This document shows, in pieces, positions 1 through 11,867 of a DNA stretch of 64,000 bases. Each line of letters begins with the position of its first letter. Within the stretch, counting starts at the first letter, position 1. The position numbers were made by a program, and so were the translations under genes. Source of the stretch: a phage; sequence record PZ386970.1; one strand, 5' to 3'. Below the pieces are notes generated by a model. That model did no database searches, was not told the origin of the DNA, and saw nothing but the letters and a program-made list of their open reading frames with translations.

Positions 1-1027
1 CATTAGCACAATCAAAATCCGGATGTCTGAACCACCTTTTTTCTAAAAAGCCATCTAACAAAGAGGTTTCAATATTTACTGTATGTGAAAACTCAGTCTC
101 ATTTTCAAGAGTGAAAATAGTCTCTAAAGGCTTCCACAGTTCTAACAAATTACCTTCAAACTTTTCAGAAGCGTATGCTTCAAGAACTTTCAAAATGTAG
201 TCTGTGCTACCTGTACGTCCTGAAACTTTGAATTGAGTGATACCAATATCATTATAAAGTTTCAAATCTTGTGGACGAACAAAACGAGTTCTCAACCAGT
301 TAAACGGGTCTGTATCACGAGCTTTAATACAGTGCTGCATAGGATATCCATTTAAGGATTTAGCATCATCAGCTGTAACATCAGTACTATGGAAAATATA
401 GCAAGAGTCACGATAGCTACAATGTGTTGTATACCCTTTACCAGCATTAGAACAGAACTCATTTACAAGAACTTCAAATATTATATTGTTTTTATTGCAA
501 AACTCTGCTGCACGCTTCAGGAAAGAAACTGAACGGTTCTTATGAATTCCACAGCAGACCTTTTTGATATTATACTGGTCATGTAAGTATTTGATTTGAG
601 TTACAGCATCGACATGTAGAATTGTTGAAACTTCAATCTCAATGTCTTTATTGACTTCACGAACAATTTCCATAACAACAGGGTTAGCGATAGTAATACG
701 CCATACGCCTATTGACCAAAGATACTGAACATAATCCTGAATAGCTTTCTTCTTCCACTCAACTAGTTCTCTTTTTGAACCAGGATTTATCGTGTTGAGT
801 GTATAGTTAAAGCAAATACCTAATTCGTTACAACGTTTAACATAATCTTCTAACATCTTTTTGTCAACGTCAGGAAGCCTAAAATCAGGTCTGGCTGCTA
901 CAAAAGCCATTTCTCTTGTAGAGCCGTATACTTCGTTTATCAAGCTATTAGGATAAGTTTTATTGAGCTCTACGATTTTATCAAGAAGAGCTAAATCAAA
1001 ATTCGTTCCGATTTTAAAAGTATTCAT
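1..1027 (-). CDS. Partial CDS (N-terminal ~342 codons; C-terminus lies beyond the window start). Cys-rich protein with possible U32-family (YhbU/RlhA/TrhP-like Fe-S enzyme) features
   Basis: Manual reverse-complement translation from ATG at 1027 is open to position 1 (MNTFKIGTNFDLALLDKIVEL...); no complete ORF >=60 aa on any frame in 1-1083; Cys-rich segments (KVCCGIH, EFCSNAGKGYTTHCSYRDSCY) loosely resemble U32 family; family assignment is inference. Confidence 0.5.
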   Translation of the reverse strand, partial: MNTFKIGTNFDLALLDKIVELNKTYPNSLINEVYGSTREMAFVAARPDFRLPDVDKKMLEDYVKRCNELGICFNYTLNTINPGSKRELVEWKKKAIQDYVQYLWSIGVWRITIANPVVMEIVREVNKDIEIEVSTILHVDAVTQIKYLHDQYNIKKVCCGIHKNRSVSFLKRAAEFCNKNNIIFEVLVNEFCSNAGKGYTTHCSYRDSCYIFHSTDVTADDAKSLNGYPMQHCIKARDTDPFNWLRTRFVRPQDLKLYNDIGITQFKVSGRTGSTDYILKVLEAYASEKFEGNLLELWKPLETIFTLENETEFSHTVNIETSLLDGFLEKRWFRHPDFDCAN

Positions 1028-1083
1028 TTTTTTGCATCTCGCGTTAATTGATGCGATGGTTTTTGCAGGTCTTACTTAAATTA

Positions 1084-1485
1084 TTATAGATTCGGTTTAT
1101 ATGATTTAAATGTTTCGAATTCGCCTTTATTCATAAGAGCTTTGAATTCGTCAGGACGCATAGCTTTGTCGTCGATAATCCAATCATATACTGGTTTATG
1201 TGTTAGCAAATTATGGTACTTCAAACCAATGTTTTCCAAGTTCTGAATCAGACTTGGGAGAATGTCAATTGCTATACGACCAGGACCTACTGACTTCATA
1301 CCACGAGCAGTGTAAAGCGTTATGGTATGCCCTGCATCATACAGGGCATTAATGGCAGACACCATTTCGACGTCTGGTTTGAAGTTCACGTAATCACGAT
1401 TGTTATTCCACTCTGTTATACAATCATCGACATCAAAACAAAGATTAAGCATGTTTTCTACACGGTGCATTAGATTCGTTCCCAT
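1084..1485 (-). CDS. HAD-superfamily small phosphatase (KdsC-like sugar-phosphate phosphatase candidate)
   Basis: 133 aa; N-terminal DVDDCIT matches HAD motif I (DxD nucleophile); overlaps the upstream gene stop, suggesting co-translation. Confidence 0.6.
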   Translation of the reverse strand: MGTNLMHRVENMLNLCFDVDDCITEWNNNRDYVNFKPDVEMVSAINALYDAGHTITLYTARGMKSVGPGRIAIDILPSLIQNLENIGLKYHNLLTHKPVYDWIIDDKAMRPDEFKALMNKGEFETFKSYKPNL

Positions 1486-3155
1486 TGATGAGTGATATCG
1501 CCACCGATTGGACGATAGGAAACACCAGTTTCTTTATCAGTTAGTACCCATTTACCAGGATTTTTTGTAATCAGAGTAGCCGTTACAGGTTCTGCTACGT
1601 CATAACTAATAGAGCCGTCCTGAAGTACACGGCCCATGTTACGTAATTGCTTAGTCAGAAGTTCCATGCCTTTATAATATGCGGCTACCGCTTTAAGTGG
1701 ATTATTCTTGAAATAACCACCCAATGCAATCCAGATAATTGCCACCGCCAAATGATGATACTCGTTAAACGAACTCATCTTTCCATATTTGTAAACTAAT
1801 GGATTGATGTTAATAGTCACATTACAAGTTGTTTCATCAATAGTAAACTGACCCCAGGTCGGATTAGCATTGAATTCATCATAACCTGAAACAGCATAAA
1901 GCACTTTAGCTTCATCATATAATTTTGGCCCGTAAATCTTGGTTTCACCAAAATATCCACGAGGGTCGATAAACTTGACTTCGCCGTTATCAGTAATCAT
2001 AGTATTACTGAAGTTCGGGTCACCGTGAATAACAGAGTACTGTCCCTGAGAACGGTTATGATAACGAATAAGATGTTCTAAAGCTTGTTTCAACATTGGC
2101 TTCAGACGTCCAATCTTAGTGTAGTTCACGTGTGTGATTTTACCAAATGAATCAATCAATGGCTGAATGCTTTCACAACGATCAATAACTTTCGTATAGA
2201 ACTCTTTAGTGAAATCACGGCGAACAGTTTCAGGACTTACAAAATAAGTGTCTGTGCTGAATTTCAGTGCATCTAAAATTGCATCAACAATTTGTGGACG
2301 AGCAAGACTTGATTTGGATTTAATATATTCAAATGCCGGCTTACCTTTAATGCGTTCCATTTCAAAGTTATTTTCATTAACAGAAACTAACTGAGGAACT
2401 GAATCTGATTTCACTTTCAAATACCACGAAATCTCATCTTTCTGAAGAGCTCGACCCTGTTCGGTTAATGCGAATTTAGTTACAGTTTCTTCACCAATTT
2501 CAACTGCATTAAAACTACGATTAAGTTCACGAACTTCATGAGCTTTTTCAAGTTTAGGCATATCACCTAAATCAATTATATTCATAAGCTCTGATTTATT
2601 GAATGCGCCGCTGTAAAGGAATTCTACGAAATCACGTCCTTTGCAGTATTCATGAATTTCCTCATCGGTAGAACCCATATAGAATTCCCAGTCTTTGAAT
2701 TGATAAATTCCTACAACATTACCGCCTGTTGCACCTACATTAGTGATATTTTCACCGTCGAAATTATATCGACATTCATCACCCTTAACATAGATTGCGT
2801 TAACATTCCAAGACCATGAACCAAAATCAGGAATAATATCGCACCAGTTAACAATTACGTTATGGCCGTCTAAATCTTTGTGTAATTTAGCAAGAGCATA
2901 AGCAGAACCATACGCTTCATCAACTGTACGAATAGTCACATTGAACCCTTCTTGCTCACAATAAGCTCGAACAGTTTCAGCAAATTTTGAATGAACTACT
3001 ACAATAATTTCATCTGCGCCAAGGTCAGAATAAATTGTATATAAATTGCTCAGAATAGTGTCTTGTTTATAGTTAACAAGCACCTTAGGAATATGATGCG
3101 TTATTGGATACAAACGAGTTGCCAGTCCGGCACCAAGAATAACAGCTTTTTTCAT
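1470..3155 (-). CDS. Bifunctional sugar-1-phosphate nucleotidyltransferase (N-term) / sugar kinase of the APH-choline kinase fold (C-term)
   Basis: 561 aa; N-terminus AVILGAGLATRLYP matches the GxGTRL nucleotidyltransferase signature; C-terminal HGDPNFSNTMITDNGEVKFIDPRG matches the kinase catalytic loop of APH/choline-kinase-like phosphotransferases. Confidence 0.7.
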   Translation of the reverse strand: MKKAVILGAGLATRLYPITHHIPKVLVNYKQDTILSNLYTIYSDLGADEIIVVVHSKFAETVRAYCEQEGFNVTIRTVDEAYGSAYALAKLHKDLDGHNVIVNWCDIIPDFGSWSWNVNAIYVKGDECRYNFDGENITNVGATGGNVVGIYQFKDWEFYMGSTDEEIHEYCKGRDFVEFLYSGAFNKSELMNIIDLGDMPKLEKAHEVRELNRSFNAVEIGEETVTKFALTEQGRALQKDEISWYLKVKSDSVPQLVSVNENNFEMERIKGKPAFEYIKSKSSLARPQIVDAILDALKFSTDTYFVSPETVRRDFTKEFYTKVIDRCESIQPLIDSFGKITHVNYTKIGRLKPMLKQALEHLIRYHNRSQGQYSVIHGDPNFSNTMITDNGEVKFIDPRGYFGETKIYGPKLYDEAKVLYAVSGYDEFNANPTWGQFTIDETTCNVTININPLVYKYGKMSSFNEYHHLAVAIIWIALGGYFKNNPLKAVAAYYKGMELLTKQLRNMGRVLQDGSISYDVAEPVTATLITKNPGKWVLTDKETGVSYRPIGGDITHQWERI

Positions 3156-3196
3156 GTTGTGGTCCTCATTGGTAAGTAGGTGTATTGTACACTATT

Positions 3197-3340
3197 CTAG
3201 TTAAAGCATTCATACTTTGCCTGTAGACCAATCATAATCCATCCAATTACAAGTGTTGGAATCATTACTGGAGCCGTTAAGCTCCAGTAGATAGTCATGA
3301 CAAGCATCAATAGTAAAAGTCCTATTGTTATTGCTTTCAT
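3197..3340 (-). CDS. Small hydrophobic membrane peptide (47 aa), at the T4 imm-like position next to gene 43
   Basis: Manual translation MKAITIGLLLLMLVMTIYWSLTAPVMIPTLVIGWIMIGLQAKYECFN; ATG overlaps the SIS gene stop (TAATG); below the ORF-track cutoff. Confidence 0.35.
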   Translation of the reverse strand: MKAITIGLLLLMLVMTIYWSLTAPVMIPTLVIGWIMIGLQAKYECFN

Positions 3341-3972
3341 TATTCGCCTCGTAACATGGCACCTAGTGCACCGCCAGGGTGGAACTTAAGGAAGTCATTA
3401 GAGGTAAATCCACGTTCAGAAGAAAGGTTGATAGCAAACGTATCGATAAGCGCTAACAACAATGTAGTGGACATTGTCGGAGCTAAAGAGTTCTCATCGA
3501 CCTCTACCGCGATGCCTGTACAGAAAGAGTAATCAAAAAGGGCTTCATTTTCTTGCGGAATGTCAGGGTTACAATGTAACAGAATCTGTTTAACCTGAGG
3601 ACGAATCATACGAAGATGTTTAGCAACACCTATCATTTCTTCGGTCTTACCAGAACGACTAATATGAATCAACACATCATTAGGCGCAATGAATCCTGCA
3701 TCACCGTGAGAATAATGCCCGGTGTTCAAGTACATACTAGGAATACCTAGTGAAGCAAATGTCTCAGAAGCTTTAGTTGCAATATTAGCATTCTTACCAA
3801 CACCTGTAATAATTACTCGGCTTTCATAATTACTAAGTCCTGGGCGTCGAAGAGTTTCTAGAATAGCATTATAACGAGCAGGGTTTTGACTAATTACTTT
3901 GGCCATAGTAGCCAAAGAAGAAGCTTGTTTTATGATTGCGTCAATAGCGATAGTGATTGGTGTAGTTTTCAT
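3340..3972 (-). CDS. SIS-domain sugar-phosphate isomerase (KdsD/GutQ/GmhA-like; arabinose-5-phosphate isomerase candidate)
   Basis: 210 aa; VIITGVGKNANIA and HISRSGKTEE resemble the SIS phosphosugar-binding motifs (SxSGxTxE). Confidence 0.7.
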   Translation of the reverse strand: MKTTPITIAIDAIIKQASSLATMAKVISQNPARYNAILETLRRPGLSNYESRVIITGVGKNANIATKASETFASLGIPSMYLNTGHYSHGDAGFIAPNDVLIHISRSGKTEEMIGVAKHLRMIRPQVKQILLHCNPDIPQENEALFDYSFCTGIAVEVDENSLAPTMSTTLLLALIDTFAINLSSERGFTSNDFLKFHPGGALGAMLRGE

Positions 3973-4012
3973 ATTTCTCTCATTTAATTAGTTTACCGTC
4001 CATGGTATTATA

Positions 4013-6724
4013 TCAAAAATCGAACATATCGAACAGAGATGCTTTCTTCTCGTAATCGAGTTTCGCTGCTGATGTGAATCCTTCAAGTGGTTTAATAAAT
4101 GTCTTCTCAAGGAGAACAGTGTAGTCCATCCAATGAAGTACGTCGTCTTTAATTAAATCTGTGATTTCAGTACCAGAAGGCCATGCGATACATTTATCAC
4201 CGAATGGGTTTCCATCACGTAAAGGCAGAACGTATACCTTTTCGCCTTCTACAACTTGTGGAGCATCAATATTACCTTTGATAGCCCGGTTATATGTCAG
4301 AATTCCACGAATATGGAACGGGCATTTAGGACCAGGGAATCCACCAACGTCATATTTAGCAATGTTATTCGCAGAAGATACCGACGCGATGCTAATATAA
4401 TTCAATTGACGGAATTCTTTTTCAAACTCTTTAAAATATTCTTGTAATGATTCTTCACCTTCTTGAAGCATACGACGAATACATTCTTTAAGAGCTTTCT
4501 GTACTGCTTTAGGGGTCGAAGATTTCTGAGTCTCTAGACCCATGATTTTGAGTTTAGGCTCAGCGTAACGAGTACCTTCCATATCCCACACGTTTAATGC
4601 ATAACGTTTCTTACCAGTCCAGAATCCACCAATACCTTTAGAACCAAGCGGAGGCCCAGCGATAGCTTCTCGGTCCATGAACATCAAATGTTGCTTATTA
4701 TTCATGTATTCGCACATTTCACGGAAACCTCTATCAATAGCAGGTTCCATACGTTCACGAGCGAACTTATCTAAGAAGTCTACCCAATGGTTGGTATCAC
4801 GGAATTTAGATTCACCAACCTTATCGATAATTTTATCAGCAGATACGTAAATAGAGTCTGTATCACCATAAAGAACGAAAGCTTCGCCTTCTGTACCACA
4901 AACTTCATTCAGATATTCATTAACTTTACGTTCAATCCACTGTAAAGCCATTTGCCCGAATGTTGTGATTGCAGTAGCATTACGCAAATCATAATAACGG
5001 AACCAAACGTTACCAAGTGCACCATAAAGTGAGTTGATAAGCAATTTACGGTTAATTTGTGCAGTCATACCTGCAACTTCAGTACGTTGAGCTCTAAACA
5101 GCATTTCATTAAGAGATTTAGCAGACAACTTTTTAATCTTTTCTTTAATCTCATCACTGAAGTCGAAACGATAATCAACATCTAATGGTTCGTCAACAGA
5201 AAGATTAGGATTATGCAATGCCTCTTTAATTATTTCACCATTACGTTGAGCTGCAAGCATGTAACCTTTATGTTCTTTACGTTGATTAAAGACCTTAGTG
5301 ATTTCAGTTGGAACTACACCATCACGGTCTTTATAATACATCATGCCGTTAGGAGAGCAACTGTACACATCTGAAGGACGTTCAGCAACAGCGTTAATAT
5401 AATCATGCAATGGAGCTACTTTAAACGTTCCTGCTATTGTTTCTGGGCTAATATTCACTTGGCGAATAATACTTGGATACAGAGATGTAAGGTCGAAACT
5501 CATTACATATTTGTATCGATTTGGAATAGGTTCCTTAACAAAAGCGCCTGGGTAAGGTTGAACTGGATGCGAACGACCTTGTGGAATCACCTTGTTCTGC
5601 TCTTTAAGGCTATTAAAAATAATAGCATCCCATGTTTTAATTGGGCTAAACACAGATTGAATCTGTATCTTAGCATAATAACCCATGTCCAAGCTCAAGT
5701 TAATGAACTGGCGTTTAGCATCAATTTGCAATACACGATACACGTCGATAATGTTATAAGAAATATATCGTTGGTGATTGCTTTCACGAAGCTTAGAAAT
5801 AGGGCCGTCGTATTTCAGTTTACCAACGTTCAATTCAAATTCTGAAATGTAATCCAGAGAATATGACGGTTGATTGGTAAAAGAGAATTTTTTGTAAAGG
5901 TCAATGTAATCAAGAACAGAGATACCGAACAATGTAATGATTTCACGAGAACCATACATGTTTTCGATAACTTTAACACGAGTTTTACGATGTGGCGATA
6001 AACGTTTCGCAGTAGATTCGCCAAAAATATTCTTGATTCGGTTATACACATATGGAATATCAAATGACTCAACGTTCCATCCAGTCAAAATGACAGGAGT
6101 TTTCTGTTGCCAGAAGTTGAGATATTCCATCAACAATTCTTTTTCGTTATCGAACGGCATATAAATGATTTTATCGATAATTTCAGATGGAACTTCATCA
6201 CCGCCTTGTTCTTGAAGCTTAGCCGCAATTTCGATAGACCATTCTTCTACATTACCATATGGAGAATTCAATAGATCAAATACGTAGAACCTGTCGTCAA
6301 TTGAGTCATAATGGGTGATAGCATCAATCGGATGTTTTGCTTGTGACGGCTCAGGGAACCCATCCGGAGATGTTACTTCGATGTCGAAGTTAGCCACACG
6401 AATTTTTGTATGGTCGTATTTGATTTCATAGTTATAAGTGTCAGACAAATACGCCAATTTGAAATCGTCCATGCCAAGTGCTTCAAGTCCGATATCTTCC
6501 ATGCGTTTAATCCATTGGGAGGCATCACGCATATTAGCGAACAACTTACGAGTACACGGCTTACCGTAGATATCGAAATATTTCGTAGCCTGACTTTCTG
6601 GACAATGAGCAAACAGTGATGGTTTATATTCTACTTCGCGAGTACGTTCACGGCCATTAGAATCGATGTAACGTTCAAAAATTGAATCACCAATCTGTTC
6701 AACCGTTAAGTAAAATTCTTTCAT
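4013..6724 (-). CDS. 43: DNA polymerase gp43 (family B, T4/RB69 type)
   Basis: 903 aa; exonuclease motifs (FDIEV), polymerase motifs DxxSLYPS and YGDTDS; sequence recalled as matching RB69 gp43 (903 aa). Confidence 0.98.
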   Translation of the reverse strand: MKEFYLTVEQIGDSIFERYIDSNGRERTREVEYKPSLFAHCPESQATKYFDIYGKPCTRKLFANMRDASQWIKRMEDIGLEALGMDDFKLAYLSDTYNYEIKYDHTKIRVANFDIEVTSPDGFPEPSQAKHPIDAITHYDSIDDRFYVFDLLNSPYGNVEEWSIEIAAKLQEQGGDEVPSEIIDKIIYMPFDNEKELLMEYLNFWQQKTPVILTGWNVESFDIPYVYNRIKNIFGESTAKRLSPHRKTRVKVIENMYGSREIITLFGISVLDYIDLYKKFSFTNQPSYSLDYISEFELNVGKLKYDGPISKLRESNHQRYISYNIIDVYRVLQIDAKRQFINLSLDMGYYAKIQIQSVFSPIKTWDAIIFNSLKEQNKVIPQGRSHPVQPYPGAFVKEPIPNRYKYVMSFDLTSLYPSIIRQVNISPETIAGTFKVAPLHDYINAVAERPSDVYSCSPNGMMYYKDRDGVVPTEITKVFNQRKEHKGYMLAAQRNGEIIKEALHNPNLSVDEPLDVDYRFDFSDEIKEKIKKLSAKSLNEMLFRAQRTEVAGMTAQINRKLLINSLYGALGNVWFRYYDLRNATAITTFGQMALQWIERKVNEYLNEVCGTEGEAFVLYGDTDSIYVSADKIIDKVGESKFRDTNHWVDFLDKFARERMEPAIDRGFREMCEYMNNKQHLMFMDREAIAGPPLGSKGIGGFWTGKKRYALNVWDMEGTRYAEPKLKIMGLETQKSSTPKAVQKALKECIRRMLQEGEESLQEYFKEFEKEFRQLNYISIASVSSANNIAKYDVGGFPGPKCPFHIRGILTYNRAIKGNIDAPQVVEGEKVYVLPLRDGNPFGDKCIAWPSGTEITDLIKDDVLHWMDYTVLLEKTFIKPLEGFTSAAKLDYEKKASLFDMFDF

Positions 6725-6783
6725 TTAATTTCCTTTAGACGAGTTATTGTCTTTTGTTTGTTGATGAACTTATTATACTCCAA

Positions 6784-6801
6784 ATGGGACCGAAGTCCCA
6801 T
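6784..6801 (-). terminator. Stable UUCG-tetraloop hairpin between regA and gene 43 (terminator or gene 43 mRNA regulatory structure)
   Basis: Minus RNA AUGGGAC-UUCG-GUCCCAU; no clean U-tract; followed by TATAAT-like sequence ~50 nt upstream of the gene 43 ATG. Confidence 0.45.
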
Positions 6802-6805
6802 TGCT

Positions 6806-7174
6806 TTAATTACCAATTGTATATTTTGCTTTCAAAGTCCAGTCGTCTTTCTGTTTAAAAGAGATAACACGGAAGTTATTAGTCAGGCTAAATAGATCTT
6901 CACGAGCAGAGTCTTCAATAACAATCAATCCCCAGTCTTCAAGCAACTGAGCAATCGAATCACGTCGCTGATAGTCTTCACCGTCAATATCAACCTGGCG
7001 TCCATCCATACGCAGCATTTCTTTAAAGTGGACAATATAGTACTTACCTTGCTTTTGGAGGATATGACAAGACTGGTAAAGGACTTTATCTTTGTTATTA
7101 GCGATGCCCATACGGGTCAAAGTCTCTTTGACTTTCAGAAAATCTTCAGGGTTCTTCAATTTAATTTCAATCAT
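6806..7174 (-). CDS. regA: RegA translational repressor
   Basis: Translation from MIEIKLKNPEDFLKVKETLTRMGIANNKDKVLYQSCHIL is near-identical to recalled T4 RegA (122 aa); start overlaps gp62 stop as in T4. Confidence 0.93.
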   Translation of the reverse strand: MIEIKLKNPEDFLKVKETLTRMGIANNKDKVLYQSCHILQKQGKYYIVHFKEMLRMDGRQVDIDGEDYQRRDSIAQLLEDWGLIVIEDSAREDLFSLTNNFRVISFKQKDDWTLKAKYTIGN

Positions 7175-10178: not shown

Positions 10179-11867
10179 TTATGAAACAGTCATCACAGTA
10201 AATCGTCCAACTTTGCTCATTTGAAGATGTTGTCCATAAGCTTGTGGGTCATGGTCTCTGTGACTAATTATAAACACGTTTGCATCGGTTAGAGAGTTAA
10301 GAATTGTTGAAATAGCTTTAATACCTTCAGAATCAGTCGCTGAATCCATGACTTCGTCCATAATTAATGTATTGATTCTAACACCAGAGACCTTTTCAGC
10401 AATATCTCGCCATGTAAACAACAATGCGATATCGATACGTGCCTTTTCACCTTGACTAAATGAAGCATAACTAAAATCTTCACGGCCACGTGATTTTATA
10501 GATTCATTGAATTCTTCGTCAATAGAAAACACGTAATCAGCTTCCATGATTTTAAGATAATGGTTAATCTGCTTGTTGAACAGAGGCACATATTTTTTAA
10601 TGATAGCACCTTTAATACCAGAATCTTTTAACATATCTGTGATAATACCACGATGGTATTTTTCAAGAACGATATCTGATTTTGTTTTAATGATTTTATC
10701 AAGTTCTTTTTGAAGCAAAGCTATCTCATCGGCATGGTCGATAAATTCTGCTGAGGCTTGTTCTATTGCAGCTTTAACTTTCTTAGCTTTATCAATAGTG
10801 GCAATCATTGCTTGTTTCTTGGTACGAATATCAGATGCAAGGTCCTGTTTAGTCTTAACATTAGCTCTATATTCGTCCACTAGGACACTCAGATTATCTC
10901 TGTGACAGGTAAGTTGCTCGAATGAGTGATTACATTCATGAAGCTTATCGGTAATCTTAGAGACAATAGGATCACCCTGGTGCAACTGTGATGCGCAAGT
11001 AGGACATGTACCGCCATCATGATACATCTTAATAACTTTGTTATATGAGTCAATTTTAGATTTAATCAAGAATGCTTCTTGTCCTATCTTGTTGAATGCC
11101 TCAGTAGGATCTTCATCAAGAACGATATTAAGTAGTCGCTCATTAGCTTCTTCGATTTCTGCTTTTAATGAACGAGCTTCTTTGGCTAGGTCGTCATACA
11201 TATTCTGTAGACGCGCTACATTATCACCAGATAATTTCTTTTGACGTTCGATATTATCGTTATAAATCTTAATTTGTTGGATAATACCATCTTTCTTGGC
11301 ATCAAGAACTTGTCCCTGGGAATTAAGTTCTCGAACTTGAGACTTATTGATTTTATCCATTTCAGCGAGTGTGCCAACTTCTAAAAGGTCTTCGACAAGT
11401 TTTCTACGAGCAGGGGTGCTAAGAGCCATGAAAGGGGTATACCCTGCCGTCCCAAGCACAACGATTTGTTTAAAAGACGCGTATGACATTCCGATGCTAC
11501 GTTCAAATTCTTCTTGGAAGTCACGACTGCTGGCAGATTCATCGAGACGAACACCGTCAACGGAGATTTCGAAAATATTGGGCTTTTGGCCGCGTTTAAT
11601 GAAGTATTTTTTATCATCGAATTCCATCCAAAGCTCAACTAAGAGCTCTTTCTTGTTCGTGCTATTAATGATTTGTCCTTTCTTAACATCACGAAATGGT
11701 TTACCGAAAAGTCCGAAAGTAATGGCTTCTAACATCGTAGATTTACCACCGCCGTTTTTACCGGTGATTAATGTCTTTTGGACTTTATCTAATTGGATAT
11801 CAATAGGATTCCCACCTACCGACATGATGTTTTGATAACGAACACGATTTAATTTAAATGATTTCAT
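10179..11867 (-). CDS. 46: Recombination/repair exonuclease subunit gp46 (Rad50/SbcC-like ATPase)
   Basis: 562 aa; Walker A GKNGGGKST, central coiled coil, CxxC zinc hook (GGTCPTCASQ), C-terminal signature/Walker B region. Confidence 0.95.
   Translation of the reverse strand: MKSFKLNRVRYQNIMSVGGNPIDIQLDKVQKTLITGKNGGGKSTMLEAITFGLFGKPFRDVKKGQIINSTNKKELLVELWMEFDDKKYFIKRGQKPNIFEISVDGVRLDESASSRDFQEEFERSIGMSYASFKQIVVLGTAGYTPFMALSTPARRKLVEDLLEVGTLAEMDKINKSQVRELNSQGQVLDAKKDGIIQQIKIYNDNIERQKKLSGDNVARLQNMYDDLAKEARSLKAEIEEANERLLNIVLDEDPTEAFNKIGQEAFLIKSKIDSYNKVIKMYHDGGTCPTCASQLHQGDPIVSKITDKLHECNHSFEQLTCHRDNLSVLVDEYRANVKTKQDLASDIRTKKQAMIATIDKAKKVKAAIEQASAEFIDHADEIALLQKELDKIIKTKSDIVLEKYHRGIITDMLKDSGIKGAIIKKYVPLFNKQINHYLKIMEADYVFSIDEEFNESIKSRGREDFSYASFSQGEKARIDIALLFTWRDIAEKVSGVRINTLIMDEVMDSATDSEGIKAISTILNSLTDANVFIISHRDHDPQAYGQHLQMSKVGRFTVMTVS

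Follow-up and report, generated by a model that had tools for sequence, protein, structure and literature searches.

The leftmost gene of a 64,000-nucleotide stretch of phage DNA (sequence record PZ386970.1; "the window" below means this whole stretch) encodes a U32-family protein, the ortholog of RB69 gp50, which on the evidence of its sequence and gene neighborhood is probably a hydroxylase of pyrimidine C5 that works without O2, depends on prephenate and feeds DNA glycosylation. The window comes from a Mosigvirus, an RB69-like genus of T4-type phages, with bases 1 to 4000 sharing 98% identity with Escherichia phage GADS24 and ∼97.5% with well over a hundred other records. The open reading frame (ORF) starts with an ATG at 1027-1025 on the minus strand and runs for 342 stop-free codons to the left window edge. 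Its 342 residues are identical to those of the 386-amino-acid (aa) protein WGG26161.1 of GADS24, whose full-length gene occupies 386 codons (5867-7027 of the GADS24 locus, L001), and therefore 44 C-terminal residues, including three of the four cysteines of a second motif described below, lie outside the window. An earlier reading of the window from its letters alone (the sequence-only reading) had treated the ORF as partial and implied that the missing end was the C terminus, as proved to be the case; the full-length form was taken from GADS24.

The same reading had placed the protein by eye in the peptidase U32 family, citing DLALLDKIVEL (aa 11-21), EVYG (32-35), ICFNYTLNT (71-79), KVCCGIH (156-162) and EFCSNAGKGYTTHCSYRDSCY (190-210), all of which are present. 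It had proposed a PF01136 profile search, with the lack of any U32 profile match counting against the assignment. The match was significant and was made by the window fragment itself (aa 94-286; 42.7 bits versus a Pfam gathering score of 22.4, E = 5.4e-11), and nearly all listed U32 homologs carry a precomputed PF01136 match. An AlphaFold2 model of an ortholog (P0002, 87% identical; 80-sequence alignment; predicted local distance difference test score of 92.9) predicts the TIM-barrel fold of the U32 catalytic domain. No PDB entry was matched by sequence at E ≤ 1 when the full-length protein was searched with phmmer, and fold comparison alone found PDB 5d88. Identity to the four Escherichia coli paralogs UbiU, UbiV, TrhP and RlhA was 17-21% and the sole NCBIfam match, to UbiU, reached 18.5 bits against a cutoff of 440, so by these two measures the protein is not an ortholog of any characterized U32 member. 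In profile comparison (hhalign), RlhA was the best E. coli paralog (84% probability, E = 7e-6, 204 columns), with TrhP, UbiU and UbiV aligning weakly (TrhP over the N-terminal region, E = 4e-3). A subfamily profile run against a library of 1.84 billion proteins recovered 1700 clusters (50% identity), 481 of them at E ≤ 1e-30; the subfamily clusters were mostly 340-390 aa long and matched end to end. Judged by these comparisons, the phage protein is a member of a sizeable U32 subfamily of its own. Longer homologs had only an intein and DUF2621 as fusion partners. One such subfamily member (P0181, 699 aa) is interrupted by an intein, with Intein_splicing and Hint_2 matches; inteins are typical of replication and nucleotide-metabolism proteins.

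Clustered cysteines had also been pointed out from the letters alone, and their conservation held up: C192, C203, C209 and C233 were invariant in alignments of 41 (A3) and 80 (A4) homologs, down to 46% identity, as were C158, H213, C340, C345, C349 and C352, and C177 was invariant among the 41 sequences and at least 90% conserved among the 80. C158 takes the position of the canonical U32 "R-E" segment (alignment A1). The cluster ligands of UbiU were established by experiment as C169, C176, C193 and C232, and most U32 families share the spacing CX6CX15CX3/4C (PMC6747719). MAFFT aligned the four phage cysteines to these four ligands, with C203 and C209 opposite C176 and C193 and the phage GYPMQHC233 opposite the UbiU GYPTLC232; hhalign set THC-SYRDSCYIFH opposite RlhA ALCVAYSGQCYISH. 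Under either register C192, C203, C209 and C233 are candidate ligands, and the protein most likely binds a [4Fe-4S] cluster. The strict PROSITE-type U32 signature, which we take to be E-x-F-x(2)-G-[SA]-[LIVM]-C-x(4)-G-x-C-x-[LIVM]-S, is not matched, in agreement with the sequence-only reading: the phage protein has NEFCSNAGKGYTTHCSYRDSCYIF, with a 5-residue insertion after E-F and CX5C for CX6C relative to RlhA, and an overall spacing of CX10CX5CX23C rather than CX6CX15CX3/4C. A C-terminal motif, C-ANEI-C-GTT-C-TY-C (CX4CX3CX2C; L001 5867-6010 plus window 8-10), is invariant across the subfamily and absent from E. coli UbiU, UbiV, TrhP and RlhA. It may hold a second iron-sulfur (Fe-S) cluster; the up to ten conserved cysteines of the protein are enough for two. 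Part of this motif, CGTTCTYC, resembles the radical SAM pattern CX3CX(aromatic)C, a reading that was rejected given a fourth cysteine ahead of it, its location after the barrel and the lack of a PF04055 match.

The genes around the U32 gene belong to a characterized pathway. RB69 DNA contains mono- and di-arabinosylated 5-hydroxycytosine, not arabinosyl-hydroxymethylcytosine (Lee et al., NAR 2026, PMC13326640). The 5-hydroxyl is made on deoxycytidylate (dCMP) by the ThyA homolog gp48, which binds flavin and, according to 18O2 labeling, obtains the oxygen from O2. The three sugar genes of the window correspond to gp51, gp52:53 and gp55, to which UDP-arabinofuranose synthesis is assigned: gp51 (AfhF) converts arabinose-1,5-bisphosphate to arabinose-1-phosphate and gp52:53 (AfhE) makes UDP-arabinofuranose (PMC13326640). 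The U32 protein is not a member of the ThyA-fold 5-hydroxydeoxycytidylate (5hodCMP) synthase class typified by gp48, being the product of a separate gene and of different fold. By tblastn, the U32 gene was found in 222 phage records at 80-100% identity, each from a T4-like phage infecting Enterobacterales or Shewanella. In UbiU/V-dependent hydroxylation the oxygen comes from prephenate, and the same donor has been proposed for every U32 hydroxylase (PMC10990095). PMC13326640 nowhere uses the words U32, peptidase, chorismate or prephenate. Its Discussion states that no homolog of the ThyA-type enzyme serves in the RNA pyrimidine-hydroxylation pathways and leaves the kinship of gp50 to the RlhA/TrhP family unmentioned; its summaries of He et al. 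2026 (Nat Chem Biol) and Mahler et al. 2025 (Cell Host Microbe) give no such U32 role. Our literature search found no paper that joins phage, U32 and prephenate in a relevant way, ties the U32 gene to RlhA/TrhP/UbiUV chemistry or mentions the adjacent chorismate mutase gene.

This chorismate mutase ties the U32 gene, indirectly, to a prephenate supply. In phages Entb_45 (Enterobacter) and LC53 (Serratia), the gene that overlaps the U32 stop codon, ahead of the ThyA homolog, encodes a chorismate mutase (Pfam CM_2, 40.9 and 44.6 bits, respectively; gathering score 27), the enzyme that makes prephenate. Of 18 T4-like loci with U32, 15 have this gene immediately downstream of U32 or separated from it by one small ORF. 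The 54 phage records that contain this chorismate mutase are all from genera that carry U32, and among the rows listed and the loci checked the gene sits in the cluster of U32 and the ThyA homolog. By tblastn, no chorismate mutase was present in the window or in the U32-less loci of JS98 and Maestro. In Mosigvirus, a 79-aa ORF (RB69 orf049-like) stands between U32 and the ThyA homolog. That this ORF is a diverged chorismate mutase was considered and rejected, as it gave no Pfam or NCBIfam match and no convincing alignment. In Yersinia phage TG1 the order is U32 - orf79 - chorismate mutase - ThyA homolog (L023; orf79 at about 11160-11360). Because orf79 and chorismate mutase coexist there, the gene appears to have been lost in Mosigvirus rather than to have diverged.

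Metagenomic and IMG/VR phage contigs often encode U32 homologs, at 40-58% identity. Clustering was applied to the ORFs of 59 loci from phages and metagenomes, among which 41 non-T4 loci represent 30 dereplicated lineages, and ∼10 kb on either side of U32 was examined in the uncultured phages with profiles from T4-like sequences (E ≤ 1e-5). The ThyA homolog profile was matched in 0 of the 30 non-T4 lineages within 10 kb of U32, and a single ordinary thymidylate synthase was seen among the non-T4 loci (L032). The GT1 profile, representing the family of the Mosigvirus arabinosyltransferase-1 (RB69 gp46:47; pairwise E = 4e-13, full length), was matched in 16 lineages (21 by transitive clustering), the AfhE-like profile in 12 and the SIS isomerase profile in 9. 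Four gene orders recurred: GT1 - SIS - AfhE-like - (DAHP synthase/chorismate mutase) - KdsC-like phosphatase - U32; dTMP-kinase-like - GT1 - U32 - DNA polymerase III alpha; U32 - (DAHP synthase/chorismate mutase) - GT1 - AfhE-like; and dCMP deaminase - U32. The U32 start often overlaps a DNA glycosyltransferase gene, and a DAHP synthase of the Bacillus type, fused in four lineages to a C-terminal chorismate mutase domain, is encoded next to U32 or one gene away. A KDO8P synthase reading of these DAHP_synth_1 neighbors, plausible because the phages make arabinose-5-phosphate, was rejected on NCBIfam scores (114-237 bits for DAHP synthase versus about 30-63 for KDO8P synthase).

Several of these loci deserve description in their own right. 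A group of IMG/VR contigs of 86-295 kb (L039-L055; L045 4408-11077, L041 4618-11083, L055 9962-14670) carries a compact module of GT1, SIS isomerase, AfhE-like protein, DAHP synthase/chorismate mutase fusion, KdsC-like phosphatase and U32, with no ThyA homolog within 10 kb; from its gene content it resembles a full arabinosyl-5-hydroxypyrimidine pathway that dispenses with ThyA and brings its own enzyme for entry into the shikimate pathway. In two uncultured lineages (L013 8098-9000 and L038; f57 family), a gene resembling TET-associated glycosyltransferases (TAGT; Pfam TAGT 33.9 bits, gathering score 27.5) directly follows U32 and is itself followed by a dUTPase/DCD gene and UDP-galactopyranose mutase, a set of neighbors that suggests hexose, not arabinose, decoration of a hydroxyl that U32 would make. 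A bacterial-looking contig with Glu-Cys ligase, MarR and dockerin/GH43 genes (L003 7185-15428; ENA scaffold LEMO22-1...scaffold_150) has a U32 homolog beside an NT5C nucleotidase, a PnuC-like transporter, a deoxynucleoside kinase, a radical SAM/SPASM protein and a nucleoside 2-deoxyribosyltransferase-like gene, as well as a further U32 that has diverged strongly (377 aa, Pfam 21.7 bits). To judge by these genes, the region is a nucleoside-salvage or modification island.

The two genes differ in host range. Among the 374 phage records with the ThyA homolog, 57 are from Acinetobacter phages and 20 from Rhizobium phages, and none of these 57 and 20 records gave a U32 match. Across its 222 records, U32 was confined to phages of facultative anaerobes (Enterobacterales and Shewanella). 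In Acinetobacter phage Maestro, an HAD gene abuts the ThyA homolog at the place where enteric phages have U32, with or without chorismate mutase.

We favor the view that the U32 protein is an anaerobic counterpart of the ThyA homolog because it is an Fe-S-type enzyme with a linked prephenate supply, is embedded among enzymes that need a 5-hydroxypyrimidine acceptor, occurs in many phages without the O2-dependent hydroxylase and is found in phages whose hosts can grow without oxygen. In RB69-like phages it would provide a second, anaerobic route beside the flavin- and O2-dependent 5hodCMP synthase, and its product would be 5-hydroxy-(deoxy)cytidylate, the acceptor that is later glycosylated in DNA by the phage arabinosyltransferases. 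By analogy with the published UbiU/V proposal, the cytosine ring would first undergo a two-electron oxidation, with electrons leaving via the Fe-S cluster or clusters; prephenate would then decarboxylate and deliver hydroxide to C5, giving 5hodCMP and phenylpyruvate. A deoxynucleoside monophosphate kinase and the host nucleoside diphosphate kinase would convert this product to the triphosphate, which the polymerase would incorporate and to which the glycosyltransferases would add arabinose. Prephenate would be provided by the phage chorismate mutase in most related genera and by host PheA/TyrA for this Mosigvirus, which lacks one. Action on the mononucleotide is favored because dTMP-kinase-like genes adjoin U32 in minimal modules. 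Pairs of aerobic and anaerobic enzymes are known from ubiquinone synthesis (UbiI/H/F versus UbiU/V) and from 5-hydroxyuridine (ho5U) formation in tRNA (TrhO versus TrhP), and T4-like phages carry both NrdAB and NrdDG. More tentatively, the protein, together with chorismate mutase where there is one, may be a self-sufficient single-subunit, two-cluster, prephenate-dependent 5-hydroxylase of dCMP (or dUMP) that would allow full hypermodification in the anoxic gut and that would serve uncultured phages without a ThyA-type enzyme (hundreds of 50%-identity clusters) as the sole hydroxylase for a widespread but undescribed family of 5-O-glycosylated pyrimidine DNA modifications; we would give this fuller version somewhat less credence than its opposite. 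As for the role suggested by the sequence-only reading, nucleic acid or sugar modification, its pyrimidine C5 hydroxylation part gained ground from the 5-hydroxycytosine cluster (PMC13326640) and the chorismate mutase linkage, and the sugar-modification part is the less likely of the two.

A number of observations weigh against an anaerobic hydroxylase role. The ThyA homolog on its own suffices for E. coli to form 5hodC in air (PMC13326640), and direct in vitro hydroxylase activity has so far been reported for no U32 protein (PMC10990095); the phage protein and its orthologs are themselves known from sequence and gene context alone. Chorismate mutase is absent from Mosigvirus, the window included, and from Marfavirus. 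The cysteine spacing is noncanonical and misses the PROSITE signature, and MAFFT and hhalign place the cysteines in different registers. E. coli Dhakaviruses such as JS98 have the ThyA homolog without U32, which makes the correlation with host lifestyle one-sided, and it is drawn from few independent lineages. In the uncultured phages the ThyA homolog could lie elsewhere in the genome, since the survey covered only ∼10 kb on either side of U32.

The alternative that survives best retains the chemistry and moves it to another substrate level, namely cytosine in DNA (as a post-replicative repair of unmodified C), dCTP/dCDP or dUMP in place of dCMP. RlhA and TrhP, the characterized U32 nucleic-acid hydroxylases, act on polynucleotides, with RlhA being the best-aligning paralog, and the dCMP deaminase immediately upstream of U32 in some uncultured phages (L002 and L011) hints at a uracil substrate there. 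However, the phage protein is without the C-terminal extensions of RlhA and TrhP, and the modules of dTMP-kinase-like protein, GT1, U32 and polymerase III alpha make most sense if a modified mononucleotide must be phosphorylated; we consider a different substrate level unlikely. A reductase or redox helper, which might provide reduced flavin for the ThyA-homolog hydroxylase or reduce a sugar intermediate, is more doubtful still. Such a role would fit the single mention of gp50 in PMC13326640, where Table 1 lists it as "Sugar or heterocycle reductase" with 5d88 matches, the second Foldseek match, which was the flavoprotein methylenetetrahydrofolate reductase, and the number of conserved cysteines, which, at two clusters' worth, suits electron transfer. 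Yet it would leave unexplained why U32 is linked to genes for chorismate mutase and DAHP synthase and why 30 U32 phage lineages have no ThyA homolog nearby, the pathways of Acinetobacter, Dhakavirus and Rhizobium phages run without U32, and the arabinose route from ribulose-5-phosphate needs no reduction step.

Modification of RNA by a phage enzyme of the TrhP/RlhA type, giving ho5U in tRNA or 5-hydroxycytidine in rRNA and tuning translation during infection, would match the RNA substrates of all characterized nucleic-acid U32 enzymes, the weak profile similarity to RlhA and the fact that T4-like phages encode their own tRNAs. We think it improbable to a high degree, as the U32 gene is in every case surrounded by DNA-modification genes, with sugar-activation genes on one side and the ThyA homolog or glycosyltransferase on the other, its start often overlaps the DNA glycosyltransferase gene in uncultured phages, it is not orthologous to TrhP, RlhA, UbiU or UbiV, and the hosts already encode TrhP and RlhA. 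That the protein is a true peptidase or collagenase, as the family name and the automatic annotations of most GenBank records have it ("peptidase", "U32 family peptidase", "putative protease", "collagenase protein"), is scarcely credible, the label being historical, the U32 members of defined function being all linked to O2-independent, Fe-S-dependent hydroxylation (PMC6747719, PMC10990095) and the genomic context and conserved cysteine pattern being unlike those of a protease.

Features of the U32 gene and its surroundings (window positions unless the GADS24 locus L001 is named)
Feature	Position	Strand	Remarks
U32-family gene, ortholog of RB69 gp50 (RB69p050, NP_861740.1)	1..1027	minus	5' 1026 nucleotides, aa 1-342 of 386; last 44 codons left of window
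Peptidase_U32 (PF01136) domain match	170..748	minus	aa 94-286; core of TIM barrel
Candidate [4Fe-4S] ligand region	329..454	minus	C192 452-454, C203 419-421, C209 401-403, H213 389-391, C233 329-331
Further conserved cysteines C158 and C177	497..556	minus	C158 554-556 (first C of KVCCGIH), C177 497-499; alignments A3, A4
C340, first Cys of C-terminal CX4CX3CX2C	8..10	minus	C345/C349/C352 beyond window edge; sequence from L001
Sigma-70-like promoter match TTTAAA-16-TATAAT	1083..1110	minus	consensus scan, 10/12; just upstream of U32, overlaps end of HAD gene
HAD-like phosphatase, ortholog of RB69 gp51 / AfhF	1084..1485	minus	ORF and synteny with GADS24 and RB69; function per PMC13326640
Bifunctional NTP-transferase/kinase, 561 aa, ortholog of RB69 gp52:53 / AfhE	1470..3155	minus	Pfam NTP_transferase and weak kinase matches
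SIS-domain arabinose-5-phosphate isomerase, ortholog of RB69 gp55	3340..3972	minus	Pfam SIS 40.6 bits; GADS24 annotation; PMC13326640
DNA polymerase gp43	4013..6724	minus	landmark bounding modification cluster; ORF; DNA polymerase annotation in GADS24
79-aa ORF (RB69 orf049-like) between U32 and ThyA homolog	L001 5631-5870		just left of window; Mosigvirus
ThyA homolog, two genes downstream of U32	L001 4873-5589		left of window; GADS24 locus

The sequence-only reading had described the U32 gene as translationally coupled to the sugar-nucleotide genes, which was inaccurate: since a 56-nucleotide gap separates it from the stop codon of the HAD phosphatase gene (1084), the U32 gene is not coupled in this way. 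The HAD phosphatase and NTP-transferase/kinase genes overlap each other, and U32 overlaps no upstream neighbor. The sigma-70-like site just upstream of U32 is a consensus match alone, such sites being no commoner in the U32 upstream region than in shuffled sequence, and the fold of the U32 5' leader RNA was unremarkable (z = −0.56). A profile search with the HAD-like phosphatase gave no Pfam match. Consistent with the published statement that the split ORFs 52/53 and 46/47 of the RB69 reference are sequencing errors (PMC13326640), the window has the AfhE-like gene as one unbroken ORF of 561 codons, and GADS24 has an unbroken arabinosyltransferase-1 gene (L001 3974-4873). Between the SIS isomerase and AfhE-like genes lies a 50-codon ORF (3210-3362, minus strand) that matches a small "hypothetical protein" at the same slot in GADS24 and LC53, predicted to be transmembrane in the LC53 record. 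Downstream of the sugar cluster, the window continues with gp43 DNA polymerase, RegA, clamp loader and clamp genes.

The arabinosyl-5-hydroxycytosine of RB69 was worked out only in 2025-2026, and its known hydroxylase needs O2, yet enteric hosts live largely in anoxic habitats. An O2-independent second route, if real, would explain how the phages remain protected from restriction and CRISPR in such habitats and would predict oxygen-dependent differences between genera, for example Mosigvirus versus Dhakavirus, a point of relevance to phage therapy in the gut. Work with a mononucleotide substrate and a single-chain enzyme would be far simpler than with rRNA, tRNA or polyprenyl phenols, and because the substrate would be soluble, U32 hydroxylase chemistry might be reconstituted in vitro for the first time with the phage protein. 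The chorismate mutase and DAHP synthase genes that accompany U32 would represent a new kind of auxiliary metabolic gene, one that boosts the supply of an oxygen-donor metabolite, and the syntenic modules of uncultured phages point to unexplored DNA hypermodifications.

The U32 gene itself is not new, being annotated in hundreds of deposited genomes; what would be new is the recruitment of a U32 hydroxylase to DNA-precursor hypermodification, with a distinct cysteine architecture and its own phage-encoded prephenate supply. The archaeal U32 protein Mk0906 (PDB 5d88; 12% identity, 247 residues) is without the Cys-rich insertion and the C-terminal motif of the phage protein. RlhA (YdcP), required for 5-hydroxycytidine at C2501 of 23S rRNA, shares the U32 domain, is itself linked to prephenate and iron, and matches the cytosine C5 hydroxylation proposed here. 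In contrast to the 386-aa phage protein, with CX10CX5CX23C and CX4CX3CX2C in a DNA-modification cluster, RlhA is a nonorthologous protein of 653 aa with long C-terminal extensions, an rRNA substrate and the canonical CX6CX15CX3C. UbiU-UbiV has the same fold and, in UbiU, the distant fourth cysteine after a GYP motif that is also seen in the phage protein, and its use of prephenate as oxygen donor in an anaerobic twin of flavin/O2 hydroxylases is the logic that we propose; it is, however, a heterodimer with one cluster per subunit that requires UbiT, a lipid-binding partner, and has a lipid substrate, whereas the phage protein is one polypeptide whose conserved cysteines would suffice for two clusters. 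In tRNA, ho5U34 is reportedly made by two redundant routes, one dependent on O2 (TrhO) and one on prephenate and U32 (TrhP, or YegQ), a precedent for two-route pyrimidine C5 hydroxylation that differs in its tRNA uridine substrate and in its O2-dependent partner, which in the phage is a ThyA-fold flavoenzyme rather than the rhodanese-type TrhO. The 5hodCMP synthases (RB69 gp48, DLP3 gp80 and that of HY126) resemble the proposed enzyme in occupying the same cluster, two genes away, and in leading, if the U32 protein is indeed a hydroxylase, to the same 5hodCMP and on to the same kinases and arabinosyltransferases; they differ from it in having an unrelated fold and cofactor, in needing O2 and in occurring also in phages of strict aerobes that carry no U32.

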